Source: a virus. Taken from it: a DNA stretch of 64,000 nt. The position numbers and the translations under genes are program-made. Shown piece by piece: positions 1,662 to 64,000 of the stretch. The stretch spans positions 7,228 to 71,227 of IMG/VR virus record IMGVR_UViG_3300044974_000721; one strand, 5' to 3'. The number at the start of each line of letters is the position of its first letter. The first letter of the stretch is position 1. The notes under the pieces were generated by a model. That model was not told the DNA's origin and ran no database searches. It was given only the letters and a program-made list of their open reading frames with translations.

Positions 1662-4600
1662 TTAAATGTAGTTATCGTATTGTTGGTCTAATTCCGACAT
1701 GTTTTCATCGTATAAATTTAATGTACCTAGTATTTGGTTTCTTTCAGTATTAGATACACCCTCTTCAGAAAAGTCTACTTGAGCATAATAGTAAGAGTCA
1801 TTATTATCATAGACAATCTCGCTCATAGAGGATATAACAGCTTCTATATAGTTGTTAGTAGCAGCTTGAGAAGACTGTCGTATTTGGTCAATAACTCTAA
1901 GGGCTATATTGCTTTCGGTATAATCTTCAGTAGGTAATCCAGCCTGGCTATTAGTCATAAGACCAGCAAGACCTAATCCTATTATACCCCCAGCGAACTC
2001 GGCTAAGAATCTACCTTTAACAGTACTAGAGAAACCGTCTTGTAAGTTATCAAAATAATCAACGGCTTGTTTAGTTAGAGCCTGGGACGCTTTAAATATA
2101 CCTTCAAAAGCTACACCAGCAGCCAGCCCTGCTGTAAAGCTATCATTATATTTAAGTTGATTACGAATTCTAGTTACTTGCATTGACTGCATAACCCTAT
2201 GAGATTTTAGTAATTCCTCTGGGCTTGGAGTAGAAAGGGGGCTTGCCATAATACCCATAGCTGTAGGAGACCCTACCATAGACTGGTACATATCTAGAGT
2301 GCCTGCTGCTATTTGCTCTACTGAGTCTCCAGGGTTTTGCATAATAGCAAATAATGCAGGAATAGCTAGTATACTAAGACCTTCTGACATGCTATTAATT
2401 CTAGATGCGGTTTTTCCTAGTACTACTCTTGCTTGTTCATTCTGTTCTTTTTGTACTTGTTTAGTGTGCGTGGCTATTGTTTGCTCTAATTTATTTACTA
2501 GGTCCTCTGCACCACTATCCACACCTAAATTTCTGAATTCATTTATTAACGCCTGTCTATTGTCTTGTGGTCTAAACAACATATTTTCTAGTTCTAGTCC
2601 CCTTTCCCTTAATCTTTTTTCATCTTCATCTGATAAATCTGGGCTTCTTAACTTCTCTCCTATATCTATCATCTCTGTAGTTAACTGCTGAACAGCGTAA
2701 CTAAATGCATTTGTCTCAGCTGCGTAATCTACAGATGATTTATTTAAATGCTTAATTGTAGATAAATCTTGCTTAAACTCTGTATACTTAGCTATTTCTT
2801 TGTCTAAGTCTACTCCTGTAGTGGTTTGTTTTTTAAGTTCATGCGCTCTAGAAACTAACTTTTCTATCTGTAAAGACTGCCTATCAAATTCTGATAATTT
2901 ATCTGACTCAGACAAACTCTCATCTATACTTGAAAACGTAAGGGCATCTAGATTGGCTATTAAGTCTGTATCACCTTGGGCATAATTTAGTTTAGTATGT
3001 TCTTTAGCTAGTTGTAACCTCTGGTCAAAAGTAGCTTTATGTGTACCTGCTTGTTTATAAGCGTTGGTAAACTCTGTTTCATCTACACCAGTGGGTGTAA
3101 TTAAATTAGGAGAGAATAAACTGTCTGCATTATTAATACCGGCTAAGCTATATAGTAAGTTATCATACATAGAGGAATCGCCGGCTGCATTTTTAACATC
3201 AGCTGTTTGTTTTAGTTCTGCTAGTTTAGGAATAATAGTAGCAAAGAATCCTGTAAATAAATTAAGGTCTGTATGCCCACTACCCAGTCTATTAGCAAAC
3301 GCTGTGCTATATAACCCTAGTTCCTGTTCTAATTGGTCAACTCCAGGTAGGTTATTAGCTTTCATATTCTGTATAGTGCTATGTAACCCTTTTAGTTGCT
3401 GTAACCCCTTTATAAAAGACTCAGAATCCTGTTCTATGTTTTTGGAGATTAGCGCCTCCATTGCCGTTTGATAAACTATACCTTCGTCAGACTTACCTCC
3501 TGCACTTAACGCTTTTATAGCAGTTGATACTGCATCCGAACGTTCTGTTAATTTTTTATAATATTCCTCTCTAAATTCTTCAGCATCTTTATCTCCGCTC
3601 GTATACTCTCTAAATAAAGATTTTTCTTTTAGGTAGTCCTCTGTAATTTTATTTAGTTTAGTATCTCTATCACTTAGGATATTTCCTTCTCTATCTAACC
3701 CGTAATACTCTAGTAATTCATAGCCTTTATTAAACTGTTCTTTCCTGTTAGCTAAGTCTACAGAAACGTTGCTCACAGTATATTTTAGTTGAAAGTCTGA
3801 GTACAAATTTGCTATGTATTTAGTTATAAAATCATCACTAGTATAGCCTTCGTATTCTTTGCTAGATTGTGCACTCTTTAAAGCAGTGGATAAGGGGCTA
3901 TTATTTATAAGGTCATCTGCTGTCTTATATTTACCTGATAAGTAATCAGTTACTATCTGTAAAGCTGCAAAGGACCTTAAAGTTGATAGCGCTTCATCAT
4001 CTTTATACATTTGAGCTGCTATTAGAGGTTCTCCTACTTTTGTGGAGAGAAATCTGTTTAATAGCTCTTCTCTGAATTTATTAGCATTCTTAGGGTCGTT
4101 TGCTTCTTCTATTGCTCTAATAATACTTGTTAACCCTTGGAGCTTTTCTGCTTTTTCTTTATCTATATTGTATTCCGAGGCTATTTTCGGGTCAATTGTA
4201 TATGTATCAACTGCTTCTAAGAGAGACTTAGGCCCACTTTTTCCAGAAGTGTCTCCTTTTCTTTCCTTAGGTTTTAATCCTGCGTCTCTAATAAACTGTT
4301 GTGTTGTAGTTACAAACCGCATAGCTACTTCGATGTCTTTTTCAGCTTGCAGCTGGGCTATCTTTGCTTTTGCTGAATACTGCCCAGTTAGTAACTGTTC
4401 TTTTAAGTTATTCAGCTCTGCTATAGGTACAGAAGGTATACTTAAAGTTGAAGAAGCACTTGTTTGAGCCATAATTCCAGCAGCTAAAGCTAACCTGTAA
4501 GATTTATCTTCTTTGCTGCTTAAAGCTTTTAAAGCTCCAATATTAGCCATTTGCAATGCTATTAGAGGTACTACTGTGTTATACGTAGTTCCTAGTAATC

Positions 4601-7600
4601 CCCCGGTTGACGTTCCTATAATAGCTTGCAGCTCTTGTAGTGTTTGGTCGTTAATTATGCTTCCCTGGGCTGATTTTAGTATTTTACTTGTAATTGTACT
4701 AGTAGCAGCTCCTAATTGCGCTACAGTAGCTATTTCAGTTTGTACATATTTAACTAAGGGAGCCATTAAGTCTTCCTGAGTAGCTTTATTGCTTTTTGCT
4801 TGTATTATAGTACGCTGTTGTCTTGTTAAGACTTCTAGTAAGTTTTGCTCTTCCGCAGTAAGATCACTTTCCTCTTTACCTAAGAAAGTTAGATATTGCT
4901 GTAGGGTTCTAAACTCTTCGCTATCACGAGATACACCTTCAAACCCAGAGAGTAACCTACGGCTTATATCATTTGAATGAATAGAGTTTAGTCTAGCTTG
5001 TTGTTGTGCTTCTGTAGTACCCTCGGTTAAAAATCTTAAACTAGAAAGGAATTTTGGAGATAATTGTTGAGTGGCAGTCATTACTGAACCTACATGGTCA
5101 GCAGCTCCTATAGTGTCTCTAAACTGTTTTACAAACGTTTGAAGATGTATATCTTTTATAAATTTGCTATCTCCTATTAGTTCTTCAGGTAATGCTGAGT
5201 AAACTCTAGCAAAAGTTCTAATACCTTTTTTAGCTCTGCTAACTGCGTTATTTCTAATAAGCTCAAACTGTTTTAGAGCTTCATTATGCTGACGCGTTAG
5301 GTTTTCTAATTTATGTTCTTCTTCTTGTATATCTTGTCTTCTAACTTCTTGAGCCAACTCTTTAGCTGTATCATTATTTTCTATTCTTGGCTGATGCTTT
5401 AGACTAATTCTATCTTGTAGTTCTTTTATCTTTTGACTTTGTTCTTTTATTCTTCTTGTTAGTACCGCCATTTGTGTTACAGCGCTCTGGAAACTATCCC
5501 CGTCGTTATCTCCTAGTTGGGTATAATGCGTACCTAAAGCCGACATTAAAACTAAAGTGTTACTGCCCTCCTCCGCCGGGCTAATATTAGTATTTAATAT
5601 ATCTGCCCTCTCTCTTAACTCTTCTACTGTGCGTGTCTCATTTAACAAGGTTCCTGTCTCGGACAATAAACTAGTACCGCTAGGAGACCCCGCCCTCAGC
5701 GTTGTAGCAAACGTTATGCTTCCTTTTATTTTGTTCTTGTTCTGTTCATAACTTCTTTTAGCTTCCTCTTGTGTCTCTGCTACTCTTGCAGCGTTCATGC
5801 CCTCTGCGTCTGTAGCTAAGACTAACTTTAATATAAAATCATTTATCTGGTCTACAGATAGGTATTTGTTATTTGTATACCTTGCTATCTGATCTATATG
5901 ACTCTTTGTTATCTCTAAGTCTACTGGCATTGCTGCCGTTTCTCCTCCTCTCAAATAATATTCTCTCTTTATTAGATTGTATTCCTCAACCCCTTTGTTT
6001 AAAATTTCTTCTCCTACTTCCCTTCTAAATAATGTTTCACTATTTATAACTCCTCTGTCTATTGTTGTATCTATGCTGCTAGTCAGCATACGCGCTACTG
6101 CTTTTTCTTCATTTGTCAGCTCGCTATACTTCTTATATTTTGTGTAAGTCGTTTCTTTATATCTTTCTCTTTGTACTTTTAACTCTGCTTTTTGCTGCTC
6201 TAGCCTAGCTCTTTCAACATCTCTACCCTCCTCTAACCTGGCTATTTCTCTCTCTTTATCTCTTATTTCTTTACTTAATCTTTTATACTCTTTGTAGTTA
6301 CTGTATCTTACTTCTTTTCTGTATAAGCTTTTAAGGTCTCTCTTAGAACGTCTTAGGGTACTTAACTGACTTCTAATATCATTTATTCTTTCTGTCTCAT
6401 CTGCAATCTCGCCCCTTTCAGAATCTAACTGAATATTAAGTGCTTCTATCCTGCGCTCCATAGCGCTTTCTAATCTAGTAATAGTTTGGTTGAGTTGGGC
6501 AATTTGTTGCTCATACCTATTAATAACTGCTTGCCTTCTATTTATACGTTCTTTATAACTTTGTTCTTCTTGTTGTTGAGCTAGTAACAGATTTGATCTT
6601 CTAGTATCAGCAGTTAAAGTAAAGTCATTTATTCTAGCTTGACGATTCTCAAGTAGACGTTGTCTAATCTGTTGGTCATTATAGGTTCCTTCTTGGATTA
6701 AGCTAGCCCTTAAGATTGTATTTTCTTGCTCTATACTTCTTAATAACGATCTTCTATCTTGTCTTATTTGATTGTTTAAGTCTGTTGTTTGCCTTCTATG
6801 TCGTGTAGACATATCGCGCTCTAAGGTAGATATCGTATTTTGAGATCTTGTAATCAAAGACCTTATATTGGCCGACTTTTGTAGCTTATCTTCTATATTT
6901 CCTATATAAAGGGCTAAGATATCTGTGTTAGTATTTAAATTTAGTTGTGATTCTAATCTTCTTATATTACCTTCTATTTCTTCTATGAGGTATATTTGAC
7001 TTTGAGCAGCGTTTGGTAGTCTACTTGGAAAGCGTCCAGAAGGTGTTTCTATAAAACTATTAGTTTGTTGCTCAGCACTTAATTGAGCATAATTTCTTCG
7101 GGCTATATTTAATAATTCTCTTTGCGTTAGCAGTTCTTGTTGTAGTGTACTATCAAGGTTTGTTATCTGTTCTATATTTGATATACTTACGTTATATTCT
7201 CGTCTATATGTTTGTAGCTCTTGATGTCTTAACTCAAGTTGTCTTATATTACCCTGTATTTCTTCTATAAGGTATATATAACTTTGAGCAGCGTTTGGTA
7301 GTCTACTTGGAAAGCGTCCAGAAGGTGTTTCTATAAAACTATTAGTTTGTTGCTCAGCAGTTAATTGAGCATAATTTCTTCTTGCTATATTTAATAACCT
7401 TCTTTGCCTTACCAGTTCTGCATTTGTAGCTTCTACATTTAGTGGTCCTGTATTTAAAGATCTTAGGTTGTTTTTTATAGTTTGTAACTGTGAGATTAAT
7501 GAAGATTGTGATGCAGCATAACTTAAAATATCAGCTAGCTGCTGTTCTCTTCTTTCTTGTCTTAATCTTGGATTAAGTATACTAGGTTGCGAGCGCGTAT

Positions 7601-19375: not shown

Positions 19376-20362
19376 ATGACCAAGTTTATAGAGATACAAA
19401 AGCAAGAACTAGCTGAAGTATCAAATTCAGTAAAAAAGCTATTAAAAGTACCTATAGCAACAATAGGAAGTTGGGTACACCCAGAGTACGGTGAGGTAAA
19501 GTTTTCTCAAGAGGATTTTAGCCAGATAGTAGGTAATTGGAGTAATAATATAGCAGGGTACGAACCTCCTTTATTTTTAGGTCATCCTACAGATATAAAT
19601 AGTGTAGAAGGAGCCCCTTCAGTAGGTTTTTTAGAGAAACTATACCAAGAGGGTTCTGTATTATATGGTTTATTTGACCCCGTAGACGATAAAGTATTTA
19701 ACGATGTTGCTAAAGGGTCATACAGATACTCAAGTGCAGAGTTGTCCAGAAACGCTTTAAGCAAAGAGACTGGTGAATCTATAGGAACTTTACTGCGCGG
19801 GGCTGCGCTTACTAACAGACCTTTTCTAACTGGCTTACCTCGTGTAGAAGCTGTTTACCAACAGTTTAGTGAACAACAACCTGAATCAAATTTTACCTTT
19901 TTATTTCATTTAAATACTATGTCAAACTCTTTTGAAACTACAGCTGCAGCTCCCTCTGTATCTGTCTCTGAACAAAAACTGGCCGAAGTCGCCGCTGATT
20001 TAACTCTTAAACTTGAAGAACTCAGCAAAAAACTAGAAGCTACTGAACTTAAACTCTCCGAAGCTAACTCCGAAATCGACCGCCTGACTTCAGAGTCAAC
20101 TCTTAAACAAGTTTCTCTTCTAAATATCTCCTCTGATACTAAACAGGTATTCTCTGAACTATTACCCTCCCTCAGCAAACAACAACGTCAAGAACAATTA
20201 GAAAAACTTATTAAACTCTCTGAAGGTAACTCCCTAAAGTTTAATGAGCCTCAAGGTCAATCTAAACCAGATACCTCTGACCAACCTTCTAACCCTTACG
20301 AAGATATCATTAAACGTAATCAACAAGTCTTTGCTGACCTTCAGAAGGCTAAACTCTACTAA
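19376..20362 (+). CDS. Prohead protease/scaffold (Mu I-like)
   Basis: LGH, YRYSSAE and GAALTNRPFL motifs; C-terminal coiled-coil scaffold; immediately upstream of the capsid gene. Confidence 0.85.
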   Translation: MTKFIEIQKQELAEVSNSVKKLLKVPIATIGSWVHPEYGEVKFSQEDFSQIVGNWSNNIAGYEPPLFLGHPTDINSVEGAPSVGFLEKLYQEGSVLYGLFDPVDDKVFNDVAKGSYRYSSAELSRNALSKETGESIGTLLRGAALTNRPFLTGLPRVEAVYQQFSEQQPESNFTFLFHLNTMSNSFETTAAAPSVSVSEQKLAEVAADLTLKLEELSKKLEATELKLSEANSEIDRLTSESTLKQVSLLNISSDTKQVFSELLPSLSKQQRQEQLEKLIKLSEGNSLKFNEPQGQSKPDTSDQPSNPYEDIIKRNQQVFADLQKAKLY

Positions 20363-23218: not shown

Positions 23219-23219
23219 T

Positions 23220-39567: not shown

Positions 39568-39592
39568 CTCTTTCTCTTCTATTCTTACTTAT

Positions 39593-40693: not shown

Positions 40694-40695
40694 CT

Positions 40696-42930: not shown

Positions 42931-42976
42931 TTTTTTGTCTTATTATTTCTTCCCTTTATACCTCTACTAATCTTTT

Positions 42977-43366: not shown

Positions 43367-43407
43367 GAGTACATTTACCTAGTTTTAACAGTTTACTAAC
43401 TATATTT

Positions 43408-55900: not shown

Positions 55901-58900
55901 CTGAATTAACCTCTATTATAGAAAGTACTCAATTAGAAGAAGTATTAGACCCTCGTATAAAACGGGCTTTGGGTCAAGCTTTGATAGAGTTACATAAAGA
56001 TATATACAGTCAAGCACATTTACCACCTACAACTAAACCAAATGTGCAAACTAGTAGCTTGTCTTCAACTGTAGCCCGCGCTGATAAAACTGCTTCTATC
56101 CCTGTCAAAAATCTTAACTCTATTATTCAACAACGCGGTATTACTGGCCTTGTTTTACAATCCTCTCAAGGCGCTTTTAGTCTAGCTTCTAAATTCCAAG
56201 ATTTACATGGCCCTTATGAAGTCCTCTCTGGCTTAACTTTAACTATCTCCTCTACTAACCGTCTTCAAAAATATCAGGGTGCTTACGCTGCTTCTTCTGG
56301 CTTAATAACTACAGCCGCCGCTTTTGCGGCTATGTTGGCTATTAACAGCTTGGGTGTTAGCGCCCTTCCTCTTATGATTGCTATGGGCCTTGGTGTTTGG
56401 GGCTTTACTTCTTGGGATTCTACTTTTAATAATAAACGCTTTACTAGGTCAGCTTTATCTACTATGCTTGCTATAGATAAAGCAGTATTTGACCCTGTTC
56501 GCTACGGCACGGCTAACCTTTTATATAATCTCCCTACTATACCTATTTTAGGCCCCCTTTCTCACGCCCCCTTCTCTCTGTTTGACTCTTTTCTTAATAA
56601 CATTTACTCCTCTTCTTTTGTATCAGAAAACCCTAACGTTCAAATGGGTTTATCTTTCATTTTGCCTGAAACACCTCAAAGGTATGACCTCTTTAGAATG
56701 AGTAAAGTCCCTAACTCTTATACCTTTGCAGGCCCTAGACAAGAAATCCTCTCTTACGATGAATACCTTAAAACTATTGCTAGTAACTATCAACAAAATG
56801 TACAACGCGCAGCTTCATACAAACCTAATATAGACCCTCTTGTTCATCCTTACCTTCAAGGATCCGTTTATACAGGTAATCCATTTGTAGATGAACCCTA
56901 CCTCTCCCCCTCTCGGGGAGGAGGCCGCTCTCGCCTTTTATCTAAATTTGCTAACCCCCCAGCTATCTCTAATATCCTTCGTATTGCTATTGGACTTCGA
57001 TCTTCTCAGTCAGACTTTGACACTTATGGCGCTTCTATTTACCGCTCTTATAATAAACCTAAAAACCCTCTTATAGGTTTTGGTCAGTTCGCCTTTCTTA
57101 ACGCAGCGCGCGCTGGGTTTTTTCTTAATAACAATATCTTTAGCTTCTCTACCAAAACTATTTCTAAAGCTTCTAGCCTTTCTTCTCAATATCTCTTTGG
57201 CCCTGTTACTTCTTTTATAGCTGATATCTATAAAAAACTTTACATTCAACAAGGATTAACTTGGGTTACTAACCAATTGTCTCCTTTTGTAAAAGGATCT
57301 TTATTTACTAGTTTAATTCTTGGCGGTCTCGAATACTACCAACCTAATATGAATCCTTTAAGTCAATTAGGTATTAGTATACTTGGCGGCTCCGCACTAA
57401 CAATTGGTTTGCATCAATTAACTAAATATCTTCGGAACAACGCTTTAAATCCCTCAGTTATTTCTTCTTCTAACACCTTTGGAAGTTTCATAAAAACGGT
57501 AAAAAACCCCTACTTACAAGGAGTAGGTTTACTCCTTGGGGTCTCTATGCTTGGAGGTAGCTCGTTTATAAACGATAATGATAAAAATAGTAAACCTATT
57601 AAACCTTTTCTTCAAGTTGCTGGCAGTATTTTAACTGCTTCTGCAGGTGTACCTTTAATACTATCCTCTGTAAAAAACTTTAAATTACCTAGTTTTTTTG
57701 GCCCCTCTATCGCTAAACATACACCTTTAGCTTTATTAGGTTTAAGTGTTGGTTATTTTACTTATAATAGCCTTAACTCTAATACCACTAAGGATAAAAC
57801 AGTTCCCTTACTCGGCGGAGTAGGTTCTGGTATTATATCTTATGTCGGAGGTTACTATACCCTTAAAGCTCTGCAGAAAAATATTTCTTCTGTAGGAAAA
57901 GCAGGCCTATTTTTACTTAGCTCCTCTTTAGTAACCGGGTTAATACGTTTTCCTGTTAAGAGCATTCTACCTCAATTAAACGAAACAGAACAAATTTTAA
58001 CTTCCTTTGCTATAGGCTCTGCTCTTACTTTTGCTGCATCTCGCACTTTACCTCGCTTAACAAACCTTATTTCTAAAACAGCAACTACTAGTTCTCTTAC
58101 TTCTTCTTTTTCTAGTACTACTACTAGGACTAACAGATGGTTTAATAATATAAAAAACATAAAAGGTAAAGTTTCAGGGTACTTAGCTAGAGGCTTTAAT
58201 TTTGCCGGTAACTTAGTTAAGTTTATGGGCAACCCCGCTACTCTTACTTTAATAGACTACCAAATCCTTTCTAGTAATGTAGACCGGCTTAACCAGCTAG
58301 ATAAATATAAAAAAGATAGACTAAATTATAGAGCTGATTACGCTAACGCTGTTAGTGCCGCTTCCAGCTCTTTAGCCTTTAGCATTTTAGGTGGCGGCAT
58401 CTCTAAAGGTAAAATTGGCGGCGGTAATATAAAATCTATGGCCATTGCTTGGCTTTTATCTTCGGTTATTGGTTATGTCACTGGACAATATGTAGGTACT
58501 ACCGCAGGGGATGCCGCTTACTACGAATCTAAAAACTTACCCGATAAAAACCAAACCAATTTTGTTTATAACATTTCTAAAAGTTTAGCTCCTCTCTTTA
58601 ATTTTATCCCTAAAGCTAACGCTGATAGTAATAATAATACCCCTACTACTTATACTAAAGATACTGTTTTAGGACTACTTAACGTAGCTTTCATAGCTAG
58701 TACTGCTTTAAATTTATTTGCAGGTATTCGCTATTGGAAGGCCACTGCAATTTCTACACCCGGTAGCTCTTTTTCTAGCTCTACCCCCGGCCCTGTCCCC
58801 GGTGACGACGGAGATATCCCAGGTAGCTCTACTCCTCCTACGAGCCCCGGTGACGCCGCTGATAGCTCCCGTAGACGCTACCACCGCCGCCGCTACGGCC

Positions 58901-61900
58901 CCCGTAGCGCCTCTAGTAGCAGCGGTGCTAGCTTCTTTAAAAGAGCCAGTAGTCGCCCTAGTAGCAGCGGTGGCTCCGGCCCTGTCCCCGGTGATGACGC
59001 TGATAGCTCCCGTAGACGCTACCGCCGCCGCCGCTACGGCCCCCGTAGCGCCTCTAGTAGCAGCGGTGCTAGCTTCTTTAAAAGAGCCAGTAGTCGCCCT
59101 AGTAGCGGCGGTGGATCTTTCCCTGGGTTCGACGTTGGCGTTGCCCCCAAGGTCGAAGACCTTGAGTCTTTTACTTCCTCTACTCCTAATAGTAAATTAA
59201 AGATTAAATATTTAGAAACAGATAGACTTAAAGGTACAACTATTGCGTCTCAAACTGTTAATTCTGCCGATGAAGTTTATAATAAACTAACTACTAAATA
59301 CAGTTCTAGTTTGGATGGCAAACAATATGACAAGCTATCTGATATAGTTAAAGAAAAACTGACCCCTAGTGTTATTCATGGGGGTAATGAATTTGTTACT
59401 ATGGGGTATGTAGATACAACTGGTAATTACAGCGCGCTTTCTGTCTCATATCAAGATACTAAGAGTGGCAGAATTGTAACCAAAATCTTTTACGCTGAAG
59501 GTACAGATAAATCCGTTATGGATTCTCTTATAAAAGAAAGCGGCGTAGATACTAAAAAAGACTGGCGGTCTTTTACTCACACATCCCCAGATTTTAAAAC
59601 CGTTGATTTTACCCCCTCTTCCCCTCTTCAACCTTCTAGTGCACAACCTCCTACCCGTAGTATCCTAGTATTAGAAGAAGGTAAAGGTATACAAGAACTT
59701 AATAATAAGGCTTTCCAACATAGTAGTAACCTAAAACTTGGTTATGTTCATTGGATTCATAACCTATCTACAAATAATATAAACTTGGATATAGAAAAAA
59801 AATCCGCCGGGGCTGTTTTTTCCCCTTTAAAAGGGTTTGGTCAACAGCTTAGCTTACTTATACATCAAACTCTTCATCTAGATAGCTTTTACAAACCTTT
59901 TAGTATACCTAACACACCTAACCCGGAACCACACCCCAAAAAATCGGGGGCGCCAGCTACAGCCAGTAAAACACCTATACCGGAACCACCTCCACCCCCA
60001 AAACGGGCGCCAGCTACAACCAGTAAAACACTTATACCGGAACCACCTCCACAAGAAGTAAAAACCATACAAAGTGCTAGCAAACTGCAGCCCGGCGCTT
60101 CTATTAACATAGATAACCTTCGTATCGATGAGTTTAGTACTGGACTACAACTTGTCCCTGGTAAAGGGTTTGTAGGGGGAAAAGAAACAGAGTTTGTATC
60201 AGACGGTTTTACAGGGAAATATGAAAAGTCAACTTTAACACCGGAAGATCATTCAAAATTACTAGGACAAGGTAGTAAATTTGATACCTCAATTTTAAGA
60301 GTTGACTCAGAGATGGGCGCAGTAAACATCAGATCTCCAGACAAAGTTAGCCCTATACTTACAGGCACAGTTGTAGAAATAGATGGAGAACAAAGAGCTT
60401 TTCTATCTGTTACTTCTGCCTTTAAAGACAACAAAAATAGATCAGGCCCTGGGGCTAGAATATTTACTGCAAAAGGTGGTAATGAGTCTTTATTAGCTTT
60501 AGTAAACTATTGGGAAGAACATGGAAATCCATCTTTTGAAATGGACCCTAATAGAGCACCACAACCTGTTTTTTACAATACTACTGTATCTTTAGATTTA
60601 GTCTCGTACTCTTCAGACACTAATACTAATCTTTTAAACCCTGGTACTCTTACAGTAAAACAAGCCGCGAGCCATAGTTATTTACTAGCAGAGAGCAAGG
60701 GTAATTTAGCTTCTTTTGAATATAACGCTATCCCTTTAAGTTTATCAAGAATAGCCAAAGCTCAAATTATACAACCAATAAACGAGAAATCCTATGAGAT
60801 TATAAGTAAGGACCAAAAAAAAGTAAAACCTATACATCATTACAAAAACTTTACTCAAATTAAGACTAGCTTAAATGCTATTTTAAACAGACCAATTCCT
60901 AAAGAGCAAGACATTACATTTTTCAAGTCTGAAATCGCTAAGAATCCAAACTTAAAACAAGACATCTTACCACTACTTGAAGGTCAGGGACTAGATCAAA
61001 TTCGTAAGGAGTTTAAGAAAACTACTCTTAAAAGCCAAATTGCTTTTAGTACAAGGCAGATTAATTTACTATCTTTCTTTAACGAGATTACTTCAGATAC
61101 TGAATTTAAGGATTCTTTTTCTGACTACGTTACAAAAGCTAACCAGAATGCTAGAGGTTTATCTAAAGAAGCTAAAGACAACGCGCGCGCTATGAAAACG
61201 TGGCAAGATACCTACAATAAATTTAGCGGCGGCGGCGGTCCTAGTAGTAGTACATTTACAGGCGAGTTTAGTGCTGAACAAGATCCTACGTTGTCTTGGC
61301 TAGATAACTACGATGATAGTAGGTCTATACACGCAACGCTAATACCTTTTGATTTTCAGTATTTTAATAAACAATTTAGGTCGCTATTAAGTTTTGGAAA
61401 ACAAAAGATAGCTCCTGGCATTATTTCAGTCTCTTCTTCTGCTTACTCTTTCTTCTCTGACCTATCTAAATCTTCTTTTAGCTCAATCCGTGCTGCCTCT
61501 AATAAAGTCTCTTCTATCTTTAAACCAAGTCCTCGTCTTTCTGTTTCTTACACTGCACCTCGTCCTTCTCCAACTTATAGACCCAAACCTTTTGGTGTTC
61601 TTCGCTCTCGCTCTCATAACTTATTTAGACGATTCTATAGACCTACTCCTTCCGTCCCTAAAGCTCCTCCTACTCCTAACTCTAATATTAGTATTCAAAA
61701 AGGTGGTGTATTAACTGGGCTAAGTATTTTTGCTCTTAGTACCCTTCTTATAAACGACAAAGACCAAAACTCTCAAGCTCTTAGAACAACCCTTCAAATA
61801 GGTGGCGGCATGTTAGCTGTTACTTCTCTTTTAGCTCCGCTTTTGCAAAATAAGTATGTGCAACGGTCTTTAGACTCTGTAGGCTATCTTTTCTTTGTTC

Positions 61901-64000
61901 ATAACACTCTTCAAACTATCTCTTCTGTTCTTACTCTTAATAGAGAAGTCTCCTTAAAAAATGATAACCCGCTGGTTTCTACTTATCGCCGTTTGGGTTT
62001 ATTAGACCCACACAATGATTCTTATTATTATGATATCAAATCAGCTTCTAGAAGAATGGGGTCTACTTTAGTAGATATTATGGCTAGAGGTATAGACTCT
62101 ATATTCTACCCAGCTAACTTTTTTCTAGGTATAGCTGTATCTTCATTAACTTCTTATTTTAGTGGACCTGTAAAAGCTTTAGTAGGAGATTACCTAGAAA
62201 GTGAAATGCTTAAACACGGTATGTACAACGCTACCCCCCGAGCCCTTGCTAATTTATCCAAAGAAGCCGGTGAGGGCGCAATGGCAGGTGGCGCTATAGG
62301 GGCCGCCGCTAGTGTTTTGGCTCTTCTTGGACTAGGCGCCGCTAGTGCTTTGTCCGGCGGTACTGCTCTTCCTGCTACTGTCCCTGTTATGTTAGGTATT
62401 GTTGGTGGTAGCACTGCTGTAGGCGCCGGTAGTGGTTTTCTAATTAACTTCCATGCTGGCACTAATCGCTATAGCCAACAACGACGCATTTCCAGACTTA
62501 GATCTTATGCTATTCAAAACGCTATCGCTAGCTCCTACGCCTCTAATTCCGCTTCTAGTTCAGATATCTACGATAATCAAGGTTTAGACCCCCAATTCTA
62601 TCCGGGTAGTATCTCTTTTTCTAATTATGGACATAAGGATCCGTCCGGAGGTAATAAGGATCAGCAATACAACATAAGCTCTTTTGCAGAAGCTTATCCC
62701 CACCATGCTGTATTTAGAAGAAAGCGCAGCCAATCTCTTTTTTATGTAAACAGCCGAGGTGAAAAAGTACCTCATGAAGTACAAGAACATATAGGACCAG
62801 ACGGTACTACACGCGAATTTGTAAAGCTAGATATTACTCTTCGTAAGGGCGGCCGTATGATAGGTGTTGAATTGCCTAGCTTTGCTACCGGTTATGCAAA
62901 AGTAGTCAGTGCGGGTAAAAACTCTTATGTGAGTATATATAAAGATCGGGAGATGACAAAATTTCTAGGTAGGGCGATACATATACGAGCTACAGTACGT
63001 ACAGGGCAAAAGGTTTTCTTTGGGCAGATAATAGGTACACAATATCCAGATGGGGGTAACACTCATACTGACTTAACTCTTTTACCAGAAACTTATGACC
63101 GCTATTTTAAGGCTTTAAAAACTGGAAATTGGGGTAATAACTTACCCCCCGCTCTAATTCCACCACCTTCTGCACAACCTCAAAACCAATCTACTTCAAC
63201 TGTTACTCAAGGACGTAACCTTTTAACACCAGAACTATATAATAGGCTTACACCTAAAGGTAAGCTGTATTACGACAATCTTAGAACTAATCCGGCTATA
63301 CTTGCCCTTGCAGATGCTGTAGCGCGCGCGGAAGGGACCGATTTTAGGAATAACTCTGTAAATTTTGGATATGGATATATTATTGGTGGCTCTAACATTG
63401 AACTATCTAAACTTAATAATATACAACACCCTTTCGTAGCCCCAGCTGGGCATACTCCTTTACGACGTAGAGCGGACCACCTGTCTACGGCATCGGGTAG
63501 ATATCAAGCTTTAGATTTTGTTTATGCAAGAGTAGCAAGTATGAACCATAATGCCCCAGACTTAGCTAAAATGTTTGAAGGTGTAGACCGCCGCATACCT
63601 ATAAACTCTTTTTCTCCAGGTGTCCAAGATTTAATGTTTATTTACTCTCTTGAAAAGCGGGGTATACTACAGGATGTAATTGGTGGAAACTTCTCAGAGG
63701 CTGTTCTTGATAAACTATCCAGAGAATATACTAGTATTACTATTACTAGAAATTATGGGGGGCATGGAACTCCTGAAGGTAGGAAAAATAATTTCATTAG
63801 GTTCTTAATGGACAGATACAGAATTCGTCAAGCAGAACAGCTTAGGTCTAAAACACCAAATACTAATACACAAGCAAAAACACCTAAGAACTCTACTAAT
63901 ACTCAAGCAAAAACACCTAAGGACACTGCTAATATACAGCCGCGCGCTGTTTTTTCTCCTAAACCTTCTTCTCCTTACTCTCTTTCCCCCCAACAACAAC
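46969..64000 (+). CDS. Giant multidomain virion protein (at least 5677 aa, 3'-truncated): tape-measure/ejection-like, with membrane segments, tandem PLD, M23-like peptidase and lambda-type lysozyme
   Basis: ATG at 46969 (MLPFISKHLMAPLGLAATAGLAG...). Every stretch I translated in this frame is open, and the absence of any ORF-track entry in this frame implies no stop before 64000. Motifs: HSKFF..VSTGN (49948), HAKVIASKD..GSHNFS..E (50467), TGQKV..GQIIG (63001), AEGT/STASGRYQ/FSP..QD (63328-63630). Confidence 0.85.
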   Translation, partial: MLPFISKHLMAPLGLAATAGLAGATLFSSMTLNSDPLKPAKSSFYLASEFVQNSLFLNPYENLYNQYGQQYSPKLQGRFSHDYSTFFQDGNFFKPISVSDDTYALPSFSQSEERQRSIDAADKLFERDKYITPYERATYTSVGALSGLALTGVLYGASNLIVKTGDLPTKNYTAFQYLFESEVINYNKSSGTLPKPTRYLPTNFMPATIGALTGYSVSGTEGAVIGTMLGSYIGGYLLMKEEYGPQLKPLVAGALYGALAANIILDSLKTFTQEKTQSQSFTSSSLIKNSGIKSRLLNQDFYKSSNPYSFSFTELKSLVDSSVTNNIYYTNFVDNTYSPGYKSVKRLNFKDTILSSYKPNYSANKLYRIEKGQKSNELKTETNVFDFLKPLPTAISASFFASLPLLLTAALGTEKADSVKKEVNKGLVNFWNIFGAYEARQANIKAQGEIVESSKGLLSSLNEGKLSGSFKSTLTLGKSTFNYFRSEVVKNLKAPLPIAAGALVYSLLSTYQYNRSSELVKDIDKDYIPSNSIKLNNAPLNILSYAALGGVVGGTTSHFLSKFPAYRKLSYSLPFTSLIGGAITGAAELQRANLINDSSSVLPNTLLGTTMGFGLAFPLTQYSKSLHTKGEKYLKGNTISSALFGSIIGAISGFISSYQFESKSETPSNYNKDPIIVINQAVAPPGTDKETVNYANELINNSRYLAEGMAVRLDNSHIFYDSGTIGTGLMSFLKGSKDNTLLGAFYELSSDKEFLGLLATKARDEGIVVSMGGNISFTGGLEGAYKSILNSFGLGGPGAAITYKISEAINSVSKNMTGKNVYKTLEEKANPNTDSDDSGARTINSLLFGGLGFITAPTMTKIISNIYFNQSTSGIFSNKNVFSRLFIGFTFGTLGYNFASTTLDSTPYRHIEQAAEYFAGTPIDSLKAYGLTIGKNGPNTKNYFTGNFIDHMLAMFSRTTLLSGIDVTNKTTPFALGYKYDPSKKNEIYNYILHSKFFVEEEGYSDRYFVSTGNLETVVQTSRGARKQLNYAIYGKDPQIAKDLRTVAKFVATANTSDDLSTLTNQLTSKKVSIGGFGSNSDQQIINLIRESKGQIYGVMPYASDVEIANAFVQAQKEGNDVTVFIQNPLGVKAGGSQVASSNFARILFEGGVTIQILPEDSTYLPHAKVIASKDTVHLGSHNFSSNSARHVIEASLQFRSSNIGTPVIQAIKRDIYTTGAIALNTKNYKEVVDKALSSKDYFTLRLYKALYGTSNLKENQTRISNKNDLVEFLTPDLLSISGIIDSNLNSGAVFLPTSIPTDYYSRHGFSAKPNIYQHIRYGLDKQSSIERFSAFYADFALQHPLTKGLGSYINSVFPNLYKPNDGLFTTVTKGLGRFLDTITGHYTNMYYKDLRQGLIYGTIKDYHKSAYRNDNRRGFFENTLSTVSSAMSTTVYSLAFYFGVTHSMSIARAKFEDIGTDYISQLNFDSTPDYIKKIYFDSSSIKRFSLVKDITDTLKTTSSTQLGKVLDQYYDYIISEAYSSTPTTSSTTTSAIKSIDSDIKTQFDTLRTSTDGHNLIIEHDIDSVKEAITNKKIDVNDSSSIAKFKKETFGVDDTNITFRTVEGRPALFNTVSYLRNIDNSHFNNIIEPIIRDIAIYDSADAASFENTLLALKRSISGPITLSFKEGSDYKDLLDVENFGYKRLENIATQLDKLASFIPANPLLYYKPYRQARGVTTLSQYNISPSGAIFKDSISLKSLIGPGFSGLTSFSTQVLQHIKTVKLDKFVSESFNSFVLQNKLIKTELKIAKEVDNLLKLNTVPVDLLQDLTDFNNSTLTSKSLKELSDNLKDNVGEALKDIINDSKLSTLILQYTQDYDAFISNTKFYGNDSIEKIKDNSNIGLNRTLRSILFSAGPILILDRLLDPHLMQNNGDLISQIFADFNLTRTKDDKRVSQIEFTGGIPFYIKYPAILSGFVTGGFALPARQSTHSVISLLNTTLQSRYANVNLSGLTGAADSSLLNEAHEYLKTLSSSSSAAIDLDSPVSKYLFGGGGQRLKLKFGYMGAFVGGSAALIATQTLFNLTALTLNFIKWADKGEGQKPSSEEMAAGLKVMSIIKRSLTAQKTSKKATVDEIASREVLRLGALNLTYGRDKRSSYVYTFSSQIPTPLFQATLVSKLDKQGNALTYGLGFQFFPILGSGSIPTAPFSISLRPLRNTIADKRLSYINYLSGTTSNEYEKVNEYKRQLNHSLGVSLLSLPGQFISVDKDTTLSAAINFLGATSYLSSLASKIPKSVSPSDKAFRYTTAFAFDTARNIVGYSQALTIALPNAFFKVGTSLLGNPNIKPLGPASRKLAPFILSYMYASGITAPEGSFSHIGSHIANPVDAEWYRFITAVAPTTLIYGVGLHQAKVFSKAQDMAPLDTSTDFISNKQRAIKNIYDAAVKSIDPKLVANYELPLIRTANLRLNIAARRIFSITSLLVAGGLISNVSNLKIGFLDIISDSQSKQLSEVERVLQGDNSNLVRYRPSNVFDAAISYADFLARSVTGIFGVQNLFYRDDPNAFLSLGGPFGISETQPNKHRDYVQNQASSADISGSKVTLAAQLASADFSMQLKAMLDLSGSKDKTSSQVFTRLFAYPRKDFAKISRYISQSEYSLIRNRSGAFQLAIATREYQLQHLKHQRPIELAYTLLKELYAAGRINSPKTRIPVTYTPLDSLPDMFATVYSTPSDSSLDLSTRITRLLKGFTSKSSTFVALEDIAMQQYKEMSSQIPFIGYFIDNFKDIASSISGNTTASSGFALALQAVPLATFALGGVFSVGSQLLTSLYAVQTGNILKSSRNELETVRSNLERIKKAPFGYDPTTKKLKFNNTPINEAIIDVTNPTLLSSNIQTAHTSLFDTNFIDNEITSDIQEISTLKNSLRTATDSSHIASIKSDIETKTLSLKDKLTKKLEYFLDTDINIGPSKSLKVSEVLQITSEVKDNLLSKANNILTELTSIIESTQLEEVLDPRIKRALGQALIELHKDIYSQAHLPPTTKPNVQTSSLSSTVARADKTASIPVKNLNSIIQQRGITGLVLQSSQGAFSLASKFQDLHGPYEVLSGLTLTISSTNRLQKYQGAYAASSGLITTAAAFAAMLAINSLGVSALPLMIAMGLGVWGFTSWDSTFNNKRFTRSALSTMLAIDKAVFDPVRYGTANLLYNLPTIPILGPLSHAPFSLFDSFLNNIYSSSFVSENPNVQMGLSFILPETPQRYDLFRMSKVPNSYTFAGPRQEILSYDEYLKTIASNYQQNVQRAASYKPNIDPLVHPYLQGSVYTGNPFVDEPYLSPSRGGGRSRLLSKFANPPAISNILRIAIGLRSSQSDFDTYGASIYRSYNKPKNPLIGFGQFAFLNAARAGFFLNNNIFSFSTKTISKASSLSSQYLFGPVTSFIADIYKKLYIQQGLTWVTNQLSPFVKGSLFTSLILGGLEYYQPNMNPLSQLGISILGGSALTIGLHQLTKYLRNNALNPSVISSSNTFGSFIKTVKNPYLQGVGLLLGVSMLGGSSFINDNDKNSKPIKPFLQVAGSILTASAGVPLILSSVKNFKLPSFFGPSIAKHTPLALLGLSVGYFTYNSLNSNTTKDKTVPLLGGVGSGIISYVGGYYTLKALQKNISSVGKAGLFLLSSSLVTGLIRFPVKSILPQLNETEQILTSFAIGSALTFAASRTLPRLTNLISKTATTSSLTSSFSSTTTRTNRWFNNIKNIKGKVSGYLARGFNFAGNLVKFMGNPATLTLIDYQILSSNVDRLNQLDKYKKDRLNYRADYANAVSAASSSLAFSILGGGISKGKIGGGNIKSMAIAWLLSSVIGYVTGQYVGTTAGDAAYYESKNLPDKNQTNFVYNISKSLAPLFNFIPKANADSNNNTPTTYTKDTVLGLLNVAFIASTALNLFAGIRYWKATAISTPGSSFSSSTPGPVPGDDGDIPGSSTPPTSPGDAADSSRRRYHRRRYGPRSASSSSGASFFKRASSRPSSSGGSGPVPGDDADSSRRRYRRRRYGPRSASSSSGASFFKRASSRPSSGGGSFPGFDVGVAPKVEDLESFTSSTPNSKLKIKYLETDRLKGTTIASQTVNSADEVYNKLTTKYSSSLDGKQYDKLSDIVKEKLTPSVIHGGNEFVTMGYVDTTGNYSALSVSYQDTKSGRIVTKIFYAEGTDKSVMDSLIKESGVDTKKDWRSFTHTSPDFKTVDFTPSSPLQPSSAQPPTRSILVLEEGKGIQELNNKAFQHSSNLKLGYVHWIHNLSTNNINLDIEKKSAGAVFSPLKGFGQQLSLLIHQTLHLDSFYKPFSIPNTPNPEPHPKKSGAPATASKTPIPEPPPPPKRAPATTSKTLIPEPPPQEVKTIQSASKLQPGASINIDNLRIDEFSTGLQLVPGKGFVGGKETEFVSDGFTGKYEKSTLTPEDHSKLLGQGSKFDTSILRVDSEMGAVNIRSPDKVSPILTGTVVEIDGEQRAFLSVTSAFKDNKNRSGPGARIFTAKGGNESLLALVNYWEEHGNPSFEMDPNRAPQPVFYNTTVSLDLVSYSSDTNTNLLNPGTLTVKQAASHSYLLAESKGNLASFEYNAIPLSLSRIAKAQIIQPINEKSYEIISKDQKKVKPIHHYKNFTQIKTSLNAILNRPIPKEQDITFFKSEIAKNPNLKQDILPLLEGQGLDQIRKEFKKTTLKSQIAFSTRQINLLSFFNEITSDTEFKDSFSDYVTKANQNARGLSKEAKDNARAMKTWQDTYNKFSGGGGPSSSTFTGEFSAEQDPTLSWLDNYDDSRSIHATLIPFDFQYFNKQFRSLLSFGKQKIAPGIISVSSSAYSFFSDLSKSSFSSIRAASNKVSSIFKPSPRLSVSYTAPRPSPTYRPKPFGVLRSRSHNLFRRFYRPTPSVPKAPPTPNSNISIQKGGVLTGLSIFALSTLLINDKDQNSQALRTTLQIGGGMLAVTSLLAPLLQNKYVQRSLDSVGYLFFVHNTLQTISSVLTLNREVSLKNDNPLVSTYRRLGLLDPHNDSYYYDIKSASRRMGSTLVDIMARGIDSIFYPANFFLGIAVSSLTSYFSGPVKALVGDYLESEMLKHGMYNATPRALANLSKEAGEGAMAGGAIGAAASVLALLGLGAASALSGGTALPATVPVMLGIVGGSTAVGAGSGFLINFHAGTNRYSQQRRISRLRSYAIQNAIASSYASNSASSSDIYDNQGLDPQFYPGSISFSNYGHKDPSGGNKDQQYNISSFAEAYPHHAVFRRKRSQSLFYVNSRGEKVPHEVQEHIGPDGTTREFVKLDITLRKGGRMIGVELPSFATGYAKVVSAGKNSYVSIYKDREMTKFLGRAIHIRATVRTGQKVFFGQIIGTQYPDGGNTHTDLTLLPETYDRYFKALKTGNWGNNLPPALIPPPSAQPQNQSTSTVTQGRNLLTPELYNRLTPKGKLYYDNLRTNPAILALADAVARAEGTDFRNNSVNFGYGYIIGGSNIELSKLNNIQHPFVAPAGHTPLRRRADHLSTASGRYQALDFVYARVASMNHNAPDLAKMFEGVDRRIPINSFSPGVQDLMFIYSLEKRGILQDVIGGNFSEAVLDKLSREYTSITITRNYGGHGTPEGRKNNFIRFLMDRYRIRQAEQLRSKTPNTNTQAKTPKNSTNTQAKTPKDTANIQPRAVFSPKPSSPYSLSPQQQ
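58789..59110. repeat. GC-rich 141-bp tandem duplication encoding Arg/Ser-rich units
   Basis: gatagctcccgtagacgctacc at 58861 and 59002; DSSRRRY(H/R)RRRYGPRSASSSSGASFFKRASSRPSS occurs twice. Confidence 0.95.
59920..60060. repeat. Pro-rich ~57-bp repeat (APAT.SKT.IPEPPP) linker
   Basis: gcgccagctaca...agtaaaacac.tataccggaaccacctcca occurs twice. Confidence 0.85.
62690..63130 (+). other. M23-like peptidase domain within the giant ORF
   Basis: YPHH...KLDITL...LPSFATG...RAIHIRATVRTGQKVFFGQIIGTQ......THTD. Confidence 0.6.
63290..63740 (+). other. Lambda R-type lysozyme/lytic transglycosylase domain within the giant ORF
   Basis: ALADAVARAEGT...GYGYIIGG...QHP...STASGRYQ...FSPGVQD...KRGIL..V..G....LSREYTSI aligns by eye with lambda R (SEGT, GYDVIVGG, DHP, STAAGRYQ, FSP.SQD, WASL). 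Confidence 0.85.

Follow-up and report, generated by a model that had tools for sequence, protein, structure and literature searches.

RNA polymerases fused to giant virion proteins are known from Thermus phage P23-45 (gp96), crAss-like phages and N4-like phages (PMC10770324), and those of the crAss-like group have been termed 'extremely divergent' and are recognised mainly by a D-x-D-x-D motif (PMC7886860). In the literature searched, contractile-tailed cyanophages had no giant polymerase fusion on record and no such fusion included a phospholipase D (PLD) module, nor was there a prior description of a two-barrel RNA polymerase (RNAP) together with phospholipase D in a phage. The Ma-LMM01 and MaMV phages stand in print without any RNA polymerase and with wholly host-dependent transcription, in the available portions of PMC5780444 and PMC9927357. 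A prior account of a giant polymerase in the Ma-LMM01 group, or of gp080 (ORF80), was not found in the literature searched, and the preprint on Microcoleus phage My-WqHQDG has 0 occurrences of 'RNA polymerase'.

The window analysed here, the final 64 kb of a 71,227-bp IMG/VR contig that is about 50% complete, covers the structural half of a phage with a contractile tail, a relative of Ma-LMM01 and the Microcoleus-phage group. Its major capsid matched only Ma-LMM01-type phages in the phage collection, at 30-32% identity. Two giant open reading frames, hereafter giant 1 and giant 2, flank a morphogenesis module that was assigned from PHROG matches, capsid relatives and a gene order kept in relatives:

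1662-15113, minus strand: giant 1, an ORF of 4483 aa from a family of 3000-5200 aa phage proteins
16501-46905, plus strand: morphogenesis module, between the giants
16501-17925, plus strand: portal (PHROG)
19376-20362, plus strand: protease (PHROG)
20414-21730, plus strand: major capsid (PHROG and capsid relatives)
26269-29823, plus strand: sheath (PHROG)
29865-30554, plus strand: tube-like ORF (PHROG)
30646-32586, plus strand: hub-like (PHROG)
39593-40693, plus strand: baseplate wedge (PHROG)
43408-45204, plus strand: large terminase (PHROG)
46969-64000, plus strand: giant 2, 5677 aa in the window, 3' end open at the contig end

The open frame of giant 2 occupies 46969-63999 on the plus strand (5677 aa), and a full-length twin, 100% identical, measures 5810 aa. 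The preliminary description had noted the lack of a tape-measure gene between tube and hub, and none was recognised there, although an absent match is weak evidence. A 646-aa ORF that starts 91 bases past the tube-like ORF matches the post-tube gene of My-WqHQDG, and a Pfam scan of ten tail-module and neighbouring ORFs gave no useful match.

Each giant contains a two-copy PLD module, as follows:

13314-14426, minus strand: giant 1 two-copy PLD module (residues ~230-600), from motifs and PLDc_2
14289-14357, minus strand: giant 1 PLD copy 1, H253-x-K255 ... S272-T-Q-N275
13458-13571, minus strand: giant 1 PLD copy 2, H515-x-K517-(5 residues)-D523 ... G538-S-S-N541 ... E552
49948-50610, plus strand: giant 2 two-copy PLD module, from motifs and a PLDc_2 match at 50221-50610
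49948-50010, plus strand: giant 2 PLD copy 1, H994-x-K996 ... S1011-T-G-N1014
50467-50550, plus strand: giant 2 PLD copy 2, H1167-x-K1169-(5 residues)-D1175 ... G1180-S-H-N1183 ... E1194

The PLD motifs exceed chance in both giants. That each giant bears such a pair, as claimed in the preliminary description, was upheld by PLDc_2 and by relatives, which conserve H-x-K and N in either copy. Among the relatives of giant 1, H, K and Q/N of copy 1 and H, K, S and N of copy 2 were invariant in 13 of 13 aligned proteins and the motif residues were also conserved in an alignment of 20 sequences, and both motif pairs were kept in all of the relatives of giant 2 (6/6). With a Pfam gathering cut-off of 27 bits, PLDc_2 scored 40.2 bits (E=3.7e-10) on residues 1085-1214 of giant 2; on giant 1 it scored 19.4 bits with the whole protein and 29.4 bits (E=8e-7) with residues 150-720 alone, and it was found in 4 of 13 relatives of giant 1. 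The match covers copy 2 only, in either giant. With the ESM Atlas language model, the clusters nearest to the PLD region of giant 1 were all PLDc_2 (score 0.92). The HKD aspartate (H-x-K-x4-D) is missing from copy 1 in both families. In copy 2 the two window proteins have an Asp one residue farther along, which the relatives of giant 1 do not consistently keep.

The family of giant 1 comprised 27 representatives among 1.84 billion proteins, all of them giant phage proteins, colinear over their whole length and carrying no annotation, every source name being 'hypothetical protein'. One member is gp080 of the cultured phage Ma-LMM01. In a search of one genome each from 185,579 bacterial/archaeal species, the family was found on only 3 contigs, all from MAGs. 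Both halves of giant 1 gave zero tblastn matches in the phage collection, and the sole match in a single-protein scan of viral contigs was another contig from the same virus. The regions of giant 1 beyond the PLD module are:

8814-12974, minus strand: conserved middle region (residues 714-2100), ~50 invariant residues in alignment A6
8094-8846, minus strand: conserved block 1 (residues ~2090-2340), candidate first barrel
5814-8096, minus strand: coiled-coil-like insertion of ~760 aa (residues 2340-3100), from linker comparison
4914-5756, minus strand: candidate catalytic block (residues 3120-3400), R-x-G-x-P at 3140-3144 and G-D-N-D-G-D
5496-5513, minus strand: G-D-N-D-G-D (residues 3201-3206), invariant motif
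3714-4736, minus strand: conserved block 3' of the motif (residues 3460-3800), near-invariant columns
4563-4604, minus strand: G-L-L-G-T-T-Y-N-T-V-V-P-L, within residues 3460-3800
4266-4307, minus strand: Q-Q-F-x-R-D-A-x-L-K-P-K, within residues 3460-3800
1794-2516, minus strand: glycine-rich hydrophobic C-terminal block (residues ~4200-4440), matched in most family members

The middle region gave no match with profile A6 against the PDB or with Pfam. In 17 of the 23 family members compared, block 1 precedes the G-D-x-D-G-D block by ~70-190 aa. In compact homologues it stands at the expected distance upstream, and since it gave no significant hhalign alignment to rpoB, rpoC or phi14:2 gp66, we only infer its identity. 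The 760-aa insertion, which contains an internal duplication of ~94 aa with repeats beginning at residues 2573 and 2667, is missing or far shorter in most relatives (linker of 71-760 aa in 23 proteins). The C-terminal block includes a hydrophobic segment at residues 4369-4387.

The most conserved element of giant 1 is D3202-N-D-G-D3206, embedded in L-G-D-N-D-G-D-S-F-Q. All 32 family proteins had G-D-[YFN]-D-G-D, and its columns, invariant in alignments A1, A2, A4 and A5, were the sole invariant ones in the 961-column core alignment A1 (whose first row is a 961-aa stretch of P0009) and also in A4. Every one of these proteins therefore has the D-x-D-x-D Asp triad, set in a loop like that of beta-prime. 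In hhalign the motif block aligned with A-D-F-D-G-D of E. coli beta-prime (rpoC), with similar spacing to the upstream Arg, at a weak and motif-driven P=0.034. An EF-hand reading of D-x-D-G-D was considered and dropped because position 6 is Ser/Thr/Ala instead of Gly. The preliminary description had credited one giant with RNAP-like motifs; the invariant G-D-x-D-G-D lends this weak support, and no profile search reached a known RNAP. The core of giant 1 may be read as holding the catalytic loop of a single-chain RNA polymerase of the two-barrel kind that has diverged strongly.

Giant 2 shares with its relatives a long core, beyond which lies a C-terminal part with a predicted lysozyme:

50851-57063, plus strand: giant 2 conserved core (residues ~1295-3365), the part common to relatives, with hydrophobic segments
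62773-63084, plus strand: region first called M23-like (residues 5269-5372), H-I-G-P-D and H-T-D, hand-read
63283-63933, plus strand: lambda-R-type lysozyme-like domain (residues ~5439-5655), phrog_90 endolysin

Eight strongly hydrophobic 19-mers in giant 2 agree with the membrane segments proposed for it earlier. The lysozyme that had also been proposed was recovered as a family profile match, the C-terminal end hitting phrog_90 endolysin with E-values of 3.3e-11 and 1.6e-12, and a weak match (E=0.07) was seen to the lambda lysozyme chains 1am7 and 3d3d in the PDB. The C-terminal 2400 residues, which include this domain, were not found in 5 relatives. The lysozyme end is thus lineage-specific, and peptidoglycan cutting, put forward earlier as a role of these proteins, does not stand as a conserved one. 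The claimed M23-like peptidase was not confirmed: the hand-read H-x-x-x-D lies at residues 5274-5278, with H-T-D where M23 needs H-x-H, no Pfam or NCBIfam match was obtained at E<=0.1 and no PDB-sequence match, and phmmer found no similarity between this region and the M23 genes of two relatives.

Giant 1 and giant 2 occurred together, and in the same order, in all five related IMG/VR genomes that are near-complete and have a giant 1 homologue, the homologous open frames of giant 2 being 4155-6952 aa long. Microcoleus phage My-WqHQDG likewise has both giants, with a giant 2 CDS of 4151 aa. The co-occurrence in relatives, which the preliminary description had proposed as a check, was seen in these genomes but not in Ma-LMM01, which has giant 1 and in which giant 2 went undetected in a single-sequence search with residues 901-3400. 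On one side of giant 1 lay the portal in 10 of 14 loci and orf260 in 12 of 14; on the other lay a PHROG 'virion structural protein' in 8 of 14 and orf279 in 12 of 14. Baseplate, large terminase and orf187 preceded giant 2 in 5 of 6 loci. Both giants hold fixed places, one at either edge of the morphogenesis module. Related complete genomes also encode a third giant, far from the structural module, that combines an oxygenase part, a helicase-like part and G-D-F-D-G-D.

On gene position alone, both giants would be delivered by the virion. Because both carry a PLD module, and one also an RNAP metal-binding motif, they may be injected with the DNA. Most likely, both giants would be made late alongside the virion proteins, packaged, and ejected via the tail. 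Giant 1, on this reading a multidomain enzyme, has in order an N-terminal two-HKD PLD phosphodiesterase, ~1400 conserved residues, the G-D-x-D-G-D core and a conserved hydrophobic C-terminus; it would enter with the DNA, its nucleotidyl transfer being the transcription of the first genes. Giant 2 would be a membrane-inserting protein with a two-HKD PLD module, a long conserved core and a C-terminal lysozyme added in this lineage, and would act at the envelope, with its hydrophobic segments in membranes and its lysozyme on the wall. Fusion of a lysozyme domain to a hydrophobic giant is a typical feature of entry proteins carried in virions, such as T7 gp16 and the tape-measure lysins. The PLD modules might cut phosphodiester bonds, either in membrane lipids or in nucleic acid. 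Taken as a whole, with both giants packaged and ejected and giant 1 transcribing, delivery for entry and transcription is a serious possibility that we hold tentatively, at somewhat less than an even prospect.

Several parts of this account can be read otherwise. The preliminary description had derived the two PLD modules from one shared ancestral module, and what remains of that claim is a colinear profile alignment: hhalign paired the copies in order, first with first and second with second, at E=6.5e-4 for one comparison, but with a probability of only 27.5%, and BLASTP of the PLD region of giant 1 against that of giant 2 returned nothing. Shared ancestry is therefore weakly supported, and independent acquisition from the large PLD superfamily, as opposed to the duplication of one module, has close to an even chance. 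In keeping with separate origins, besides the empty BLASTP comparison and the low hhalign probability, the spacing from copy to copy is 262 residues in giant 1 vs 173 in giant 2, and Ma-LMM01 gp080 bears the module in a genome where giant 2 was undetected; the copy-by-copy colinearity speaks against them, as do the lack of the copy-1 HKD aspartate in both families, with [ST]-x-N replacing G-S-x-N there, and a word-indexed search in which no shorter protein carried the module of giant 2. G-D-x-D-G-D could instead belong to another metal-dependent enzyme or to an ion-binding loop, with a two-barrel DNA polymerase, a nuclease and a structural Ca/Mg site among the candidates, and giant 1 would then be no transcriptase. 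The profile searches that reached no known RNAP lend weight to this: phmmer with the whole of giant 1 gave 0 matches in the PDB, core profile A2 drew no RNAP and only coiled-coil noise from the PDB, the 93-column motif profile A5 drew no RNAP and only designed TPR proteins, its top matches being to a chance G-D-Y-D, the Pfam scan of giant 1 contained no polymerase match, and core A4 met phi14:2 gp66 in hhalign at a probability of 0.15%. When four blocks of giant 1 were compared with rpoB, rpoC and gp66 by hhalign, no second barrel was identified, and the sole positive was the aforementioned alignment of the motif block with rpoC, driven by the motif itself. Nevertheless, [LF]-G-D-[YFN]-D-G-D-[STA]-[FY]-[QA] mirrors the beta-prime loop across 8 residues, the motif is the single invariant element in a family with 20-40% identity, and divergent phage RNAP families share little except this motif (PMC10770324; PMC7886860), so that a function other than transcription appears somewhat unlikely.

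Delivery in the virion has its own competitors. The giants might not be virion cargo but work within infected cells, perhaps as a scaffold for replication or transcription that is anchored in a membrane or as host-takeover enzymes, and lie near the structural genes through late timing or history. Published virion proteomics for the Ma-LMM01 group was not found in the available part of PMC9927357, giant 1 and the head genes point away from each other in the window, and the third giant of the related complete genomes lies outside the structural module, which implies that the giant multidomain enzymes of this clade need not be structural. However, even distant relatives keep both giants at the module edges, the next gene downstream of giant 1 is a PHROG 'virion structural protein', and the C-terminal lysozyme of giant 2 is hard to explain in the cytoplasm, all of which makes a purely intracellular role unlikely. 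Tape measures often bear hydrophobic segments and lysin domains. Giant 2, in whole or part, could on this footing be the missing tape-measure or tail-lumen protein with its usual accessories, given its hydrophobic segments and lysozyme and the lack of a recognised tape measure between tube and hub; the tape measure of P23-45 is itself 5002 aa long and RNAP-fused (PMC10770324). Neither giant, though, is in the tube-to-hub place of a tape measure, giant 1 adjoining the portal and giant 2 following the large terminase, outside the tail block. Moreover, at 1.5 A per residue, homologues of 4151-6952 aa imply tails of ~600-1000 nm, vs the 260 nm reported for MaMV-DH01, a PLD enzyme core is no tape-measure feature, and because the contig is ~50% complete the tape measure may lie elsewhere. 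We consider such a role for giant 2 distinctly unlikely, and the idea that it is nothing but a tape measure was rejected on its gene position and the spread of lengths (4151-6952 aa).

The core observation is real, and the giants would represent a variant on giant phage proteins with a fused RNAP, their function being predicted from sequence. In its broadest form, delivery for entry and transcription would mean that a clade of cyanobacterial contractile-tailed phages, including the cultured Ma-LMM01 and MaMV phages, hides a family of PLD-fused single-chain two-barrel RNA polymerases co-injected with a membrane-spanning PLD giant of 4000-7000 aa; larger relatives would add a second polymerase-like giant, with an AlkB-type oxygenase and a helicase-like ATPase, giving a pair of virion and non-virion polymerases and making early transcription largely independent of the host. 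This extended proposal is unlikely as it stands. Published transcriptomics of Ma-LMM01 placed promoters of the host sigma-70 type ahead of all three gene classes (early, middle and late), with no phage-specific motif in the available part of the report (PMC5780444); this argues against the need for a virion polymerase in that phage and so weighs on the main reading as well. If true, the proposal would overturn the published wholly host-dependent transcription of the Ma-LMM01 group (PMC5780444; PMC9927357, as far as available) and give the tree of two-barrel polymerases a further branch, with a tractable test system at hand because the Ma-LMM01 and MaMV phages are cultured on Microcystis. Even without a polymerase, a conserved, unannotated set of 3000-7000 aa PLD-bearing proteins in fixed places beside virion genes defines a phage lineage and demands explanation.

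Among known proteins, the PLD modules are most readily compared with the two-HKD PLD superfamily (PLDc_2; BfiI and the DISARM protein DrmC), whose duplicated H-x-K ... N motifs occur in both giants too. The PLD region of giant 1 matched BfiI (2c1l, the best PDB sequence match) at E=0.29, which is not significant; DrmC was also among the weak best matches of the PLD modules, at E=0.052. Unlike PLDc_2 proteins such as these, the modules here sit inside phage proteins of 4000-6000 aa, and unlike canonical two-HKD PLDs the giants lack the aspartate in copy 1.

The closest cultured counterpart of giant 1 is Ma-LMM01 gp080 (YP_851094.1, 3562 aa, 'hypothetical protein'), which was matched by the giant 1 core profile at E=8.5e-21 and by the family HMM at E=1.3e-49 in four colinear blocks. 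It has L-G-D-F-D-G-D-T-F at 2535 and H-P-K..G-T-M-N at 287 and, as does giant 1, adjoins the head genes divergently. It differs in lacking the 760-aa insertion and in a PLD region too divergent to match PLD profile A3, and no giant 2 partner was detected in its genome, unlike in the phage described here.

With phi14:2 gp66 and the other 'transcription block' giants of Crassvirales, giant 1 shares very large size and a place beside structural genes, and in gp66 as in giant 1 an Asp-triad motif is the recognisable part of an otherwise unrecognisable sequence. No sequence or profile similarity was detected between the two. The record for gp66 annotates its detection by MS in virions; phi14:2 is a podovirus, whereas the present phage combines a contractile tail with a capsid of the Ma-LMM01 type; and giant 1 adds a PLD module, PLD having 0 mentions in the available text of the crAss RNAP paper (PMC7886860). 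Compared by description only, gp96 of Thermus phage P23-45, a tape-measure-fused virion two-barrel RNAP of ~5000 aa, has its polymerase at the N-terminus, whereas the motif of giant 1 is at residue 3200 of 4483, and giant 1, unlike gp96, lies outside the tape-measure position, in a contractile-tailed phage where P23-45 is a siphovirus. The likeness to gp96 is nonetheless one of overall design, a polymerase (putative in giant 1) joined to a putative envelope-entering part, and many phages carry two such RNAPs (PMC10770324), which parallels the second G-D-F-D-G-D giant in the relatives of the present phage.

The source record is a linear IMG/VR contig of 71,227 bp, about 50% complete by CheckV, from which the window takes bases 7228-71227. 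A myovirus morphogenesis module in it was found to be bracketed by two giant open reading frames (ORFs):

1662-15113, minus strand: giant 1, an ORF of 4483 aa
46969-63999, plus strand: giant 2, an ORF of 5677 aa that runs off the contig end

PHROG matches placed a portal, head protease, major capsid protein, 1184-aa sheath, tube-like protein, baseplate wedge subunit and large terminase between the giants, and no tRNA genes were found in the window. In a phage collection the major capsid protein had matches only in My-WqHQDG and in Microcystis phages belonging to the Ma-LMM01/MaMV group (30-32% identity). The large terminase (43408-45204, plus strand) was unusually placed, after the baseplate and fibre-like genes, directly before giant 2 and away from the portal. 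GC skew over the baseplate region (36001-44000) was strongly negative, -0.30 to -0.36; the remaining 4-kb bins ranged from -0.18 to +0.13. Downstream of giant 1, three of the ORFs, of 279 aa (268-1107, minus) and, farther along, 852 aa (L002:4892-7450, minus) and 424 aa (L002:3464-4738, minus), each matched the same stretch of phrog_37225, of unknown function, and look like a small paralogous series.

A pattern scan with an alignment of the giant 1 core, the region around its G-D-x-D-G-D motif, recovered 15 IMG/VR loci, one of them another contig of the same virus. Giant 1 was flanked on one side by orf260 (12 of 14 loci) and the portal (10 of 14), and on the other by orf279 (12 of 14) and a small 'virion structural protein' (8 of 14). 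Giant 2 was preceded by the large terminase, in the same unusual placement, and by orf187, each in five of six loci. The preliminary description had joined both giants in a single system, and they were indeed found together in relatives: all five near-complete IMG/VR records (91-97% complete, 190-217 kb) with a giant 1 homologue also carried a giant 2 homologue, in open frames of 4155-6952 aa, as did the metagenome-assembled Microcoleus phage My-WqHQDG. An exception was Ma-LMM01, which has a giant 1 homologue but in whose genome a single-sequence search detected no giant 2 homologue. In My-WqHQDG both are annotated 'hypothetical protein', giant 2 being a 4151-aa CDS whose PLD (phospholipase-D-type) region matched ours (E=7e-25) and giant 1 a 5'-truncated CDS matching the core profile (E=1.4e-17). 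The part of giant 2 common to the five relatives spanned only residues ~924-3365; no counterpart of its C-terminal 2400 residues, which include the lysozyme, was detected there.

A third giant ORF, of 3918 aa, was observed in the related complete genome G001 (L037:1071-12827; G001:C1:62070-73826). A 2OG-Fe(II) oxygenase domain lies at its residues 837-1021 (E=1.9e-28) and a helicase-like ATPase (AAA_30/AAA_19) at 3428-3594, and residue 2490 marks a stretch reading S-R-A-P...G-D-F-D-G-D; phmmer found no similarity to giant 1. Homologues were present in all four other near-complete relatives and absent from the half-complete contig of the window.

The PLD motif pair noticed earlier in each giant was present where described and conserved in relatives. 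In giant 1, the H and K of both copies were invariant in an alignment of 20 homologues and in one of 13, as were the Q-N-x-T that follows copy 1 and the S-x-N that follows copy 2. Against a cut-off of 27 bits, Pfam PLDc_2 scored 29.4 bits with residues 150-720 alone and 19.4 bits with the whole protein; it also matched 4 of 13 giant 1 relatives, and the ten best language-model clusters for residues 181-620 were all PLDc_2 (score 0.92). The best match among PDB sequences, the PLD-type restriction enzyme 2c1l, was not significant (E=0.29). In giant 2, PLDc_2 matched residues 1085-1214 (E=3.7e-10), both motif pairs were kept in six of six relatives, and a search for shorter proteins with this module found none. 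In neither family does copy 1 have the HKD aspartate, and its end reads [ST]-x-N. The modules may share an ancestor, as was suggested: profile-profile alignment placed copy 1 on copy 1 and copy 2 on copy 2 over 358 columns, although at a probability of only 27.5% (E=6.5e-4), and BLASTP found no similarity between them.

In the window giant 2 lacks only 133 residues, since longer contigs encode a 100% identical protein of 5810 aa. The membrane segments first proposed agreed with eight or more strongly hydrophobic stretches of 19 residues, and the C-terminal lysozyme was upheld by a match to the PHROG 90 endolysin (E=1.6e-12) and a weak one to lambda lysozyme chains. The proposed M23-like peptidase gained no search support at residues 5269-5372, where H-x-x-x-D is present and H-T-D stands in place of the M23 H-x-H. 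Searches of the long conserved core recognised no domains. In this lineage giant 2 also carries, at 58789-60012 (plus strand), a duplicated Arg/Ser-rich low-complexity unit, whose copies begin at residues 3941 and 4004, and, around residue 4338, a proline-rich stretch; both fall outside the part common to relatives.

As had been remarked, no ORF between tube and hub matched a tape-measure family, in a contig about half complete. A 646-aa ORF matching the My-WqHQDG post-tube gene begins 91 bases beyond the tube-like ORF, and the next ORF, of 738 aa, has a coiled-coil tail. Giant 2 itself is unlikely to be the tape measure, given its position and the 4151-6952 aa length spread of its homologues. 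Between tube and baseplate, My-WqHQDG (L029:25351-30992) has separate genes annotated as beta-lactamase-family, amidase, LD-endopeptidase and M23 peptidase. None of these Pfam domains showed up in the tail block of the window.

An exhaustive search of 1.84 billion proteins with giant 1 residues 2951-3750 yielded 27 family representatives, 22 of 3000-5200 aa and five of 333-2054 aa, colinear with giant 1 from end to end and all named 'hypothetical protein' at source. The family looks phage-restricted, because a search of 185,579 bacterial and archaeal species, each represented by a single genome, found it on just three MAG contigs. These three (L038, L039, L040), from MAGs labelled Actinomycetales (11.6 kb), Halobacteria (7.8 kb) and Synechococcus (253 kb), probably come from phages and were binned with cells. 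G-D-[YFN]-D-G-D, mostly as L-G-D-Y-D-G-D-S-F-Q, occurred in 32 of 32 family proteins and formed the sole invariant columns of the core alignment; R-x-G-x-P ~60 residues upstream, and G-L-L-G-x-T-Y-N-T-V-V-P-L and Q-Q-F-x-R-D-A-x-L-K-P-K downstream, were nearly invariant. An upstream conserved block (residues 2090-2340) is split from the motif block by a ~760-aa coiled-coil-like insertion, against a gap of 71-186 aa in 17 of 23 compared relatives. The insertion (5814-8096, minus strand) is Gln/Arg/Glu-rich, with a ~94-aa internal duplication starting at residues 2573 and 2667.

The RNA polymerase-like motifs reported earlier for giant 1 stood as to the invariant Asp triad and a loop which, with its flanks, resembles the catalytic loop of RNA polymerase beta-prime: when the motif block was aligned by hhalign with full-length E. 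coli beta-prime (1407 aa), G-D-Y-D-G-D fell on A-D-F-D-G-D (P=0.034), with the upstream Arg at similar spacing. No wider match followed, however. Giant 1 matched neither PDB sequences nor a polymerase Pfam family, and profiles of the core, the 93-column motif block and the middle region found no polymerase among 177,635 PDB sequences. Hhalign against gp66, the virion RNA polymerase of crAss-like phage phi14:2, gave nothing, and for a candidate first-barrel block no alignment to rpoB or gp66 was found; no profile match (PDB, Pfam, gp66) assigned giant 1 to a known RNA polymerase family. Such a motif standing alone is not unusual: many two-barrel families have little in common beyond the D-x-D-x-D region (PMC10770324) and crAss polymerases are extremely divergent (PMC7886860), according to the available portions of these papers. 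From this one motif, we consider it somewhat better than an even chance that giant 1 is an RNA polymerase.

The cultured Ma-LMM01 encodes gp080, a 3562-aa protein annotated hypothetical, whose gene lies beside the head genes in divergent orientation, exactly the placement of giant 1 here. It matched the core profile (E=8.5e-21) and, in four colinear blocks, the family HMM (E=1.3e-49), with L-G-D-F-D-G-D-T-F at residue 2535 and PLD-like motifs H-P-K..G-T-M-N and H-V-K..G-S-S-N; a search with the narrower giant 1 PLD profile, A3, missed it. As far as the accessible text of PMC5780444 and PMC9927357 goes, phages of this group are described as having no RNA polymerase, and host sigma-70-type promoters serve all three temporal classes. 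This host-promoter use speaks against the need for a virion polymerase, and the published view is also why the finding would matter if the polymerase reading holds. The available part of the My-WqHQDG preprint never mentions an RNA polymerase.

Two conserved PLD-bearing giants flank the virion genes, giant 1 with an invariant Asp triad and giant 2 with hydrophobic segments and a lysozyme. Both might be late, packaged proteins; giant 2 would insert in the envelope and would also cut the wall in this lineage, while giant 1 would enter behind the DNA and then polymerise RNA. The PLD modules would cut phosphodiesters of lipid or nucleic acid, and weak BfiI and DrmC matches incline us slightly towards nucleic acid. 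This scheme of packaged giants, with giant 2 at the envelope, giant 1 as an injected polymerase and PLD phosphodiester cutting, is tentative as a whole, its chances falling a little short of even. Among known systems, the giants are best filed with the giant phage polymerase-fusion or ejection proteins, here in contractile-tailed phages related to Ma-LMM01 and joined to PLD modules.
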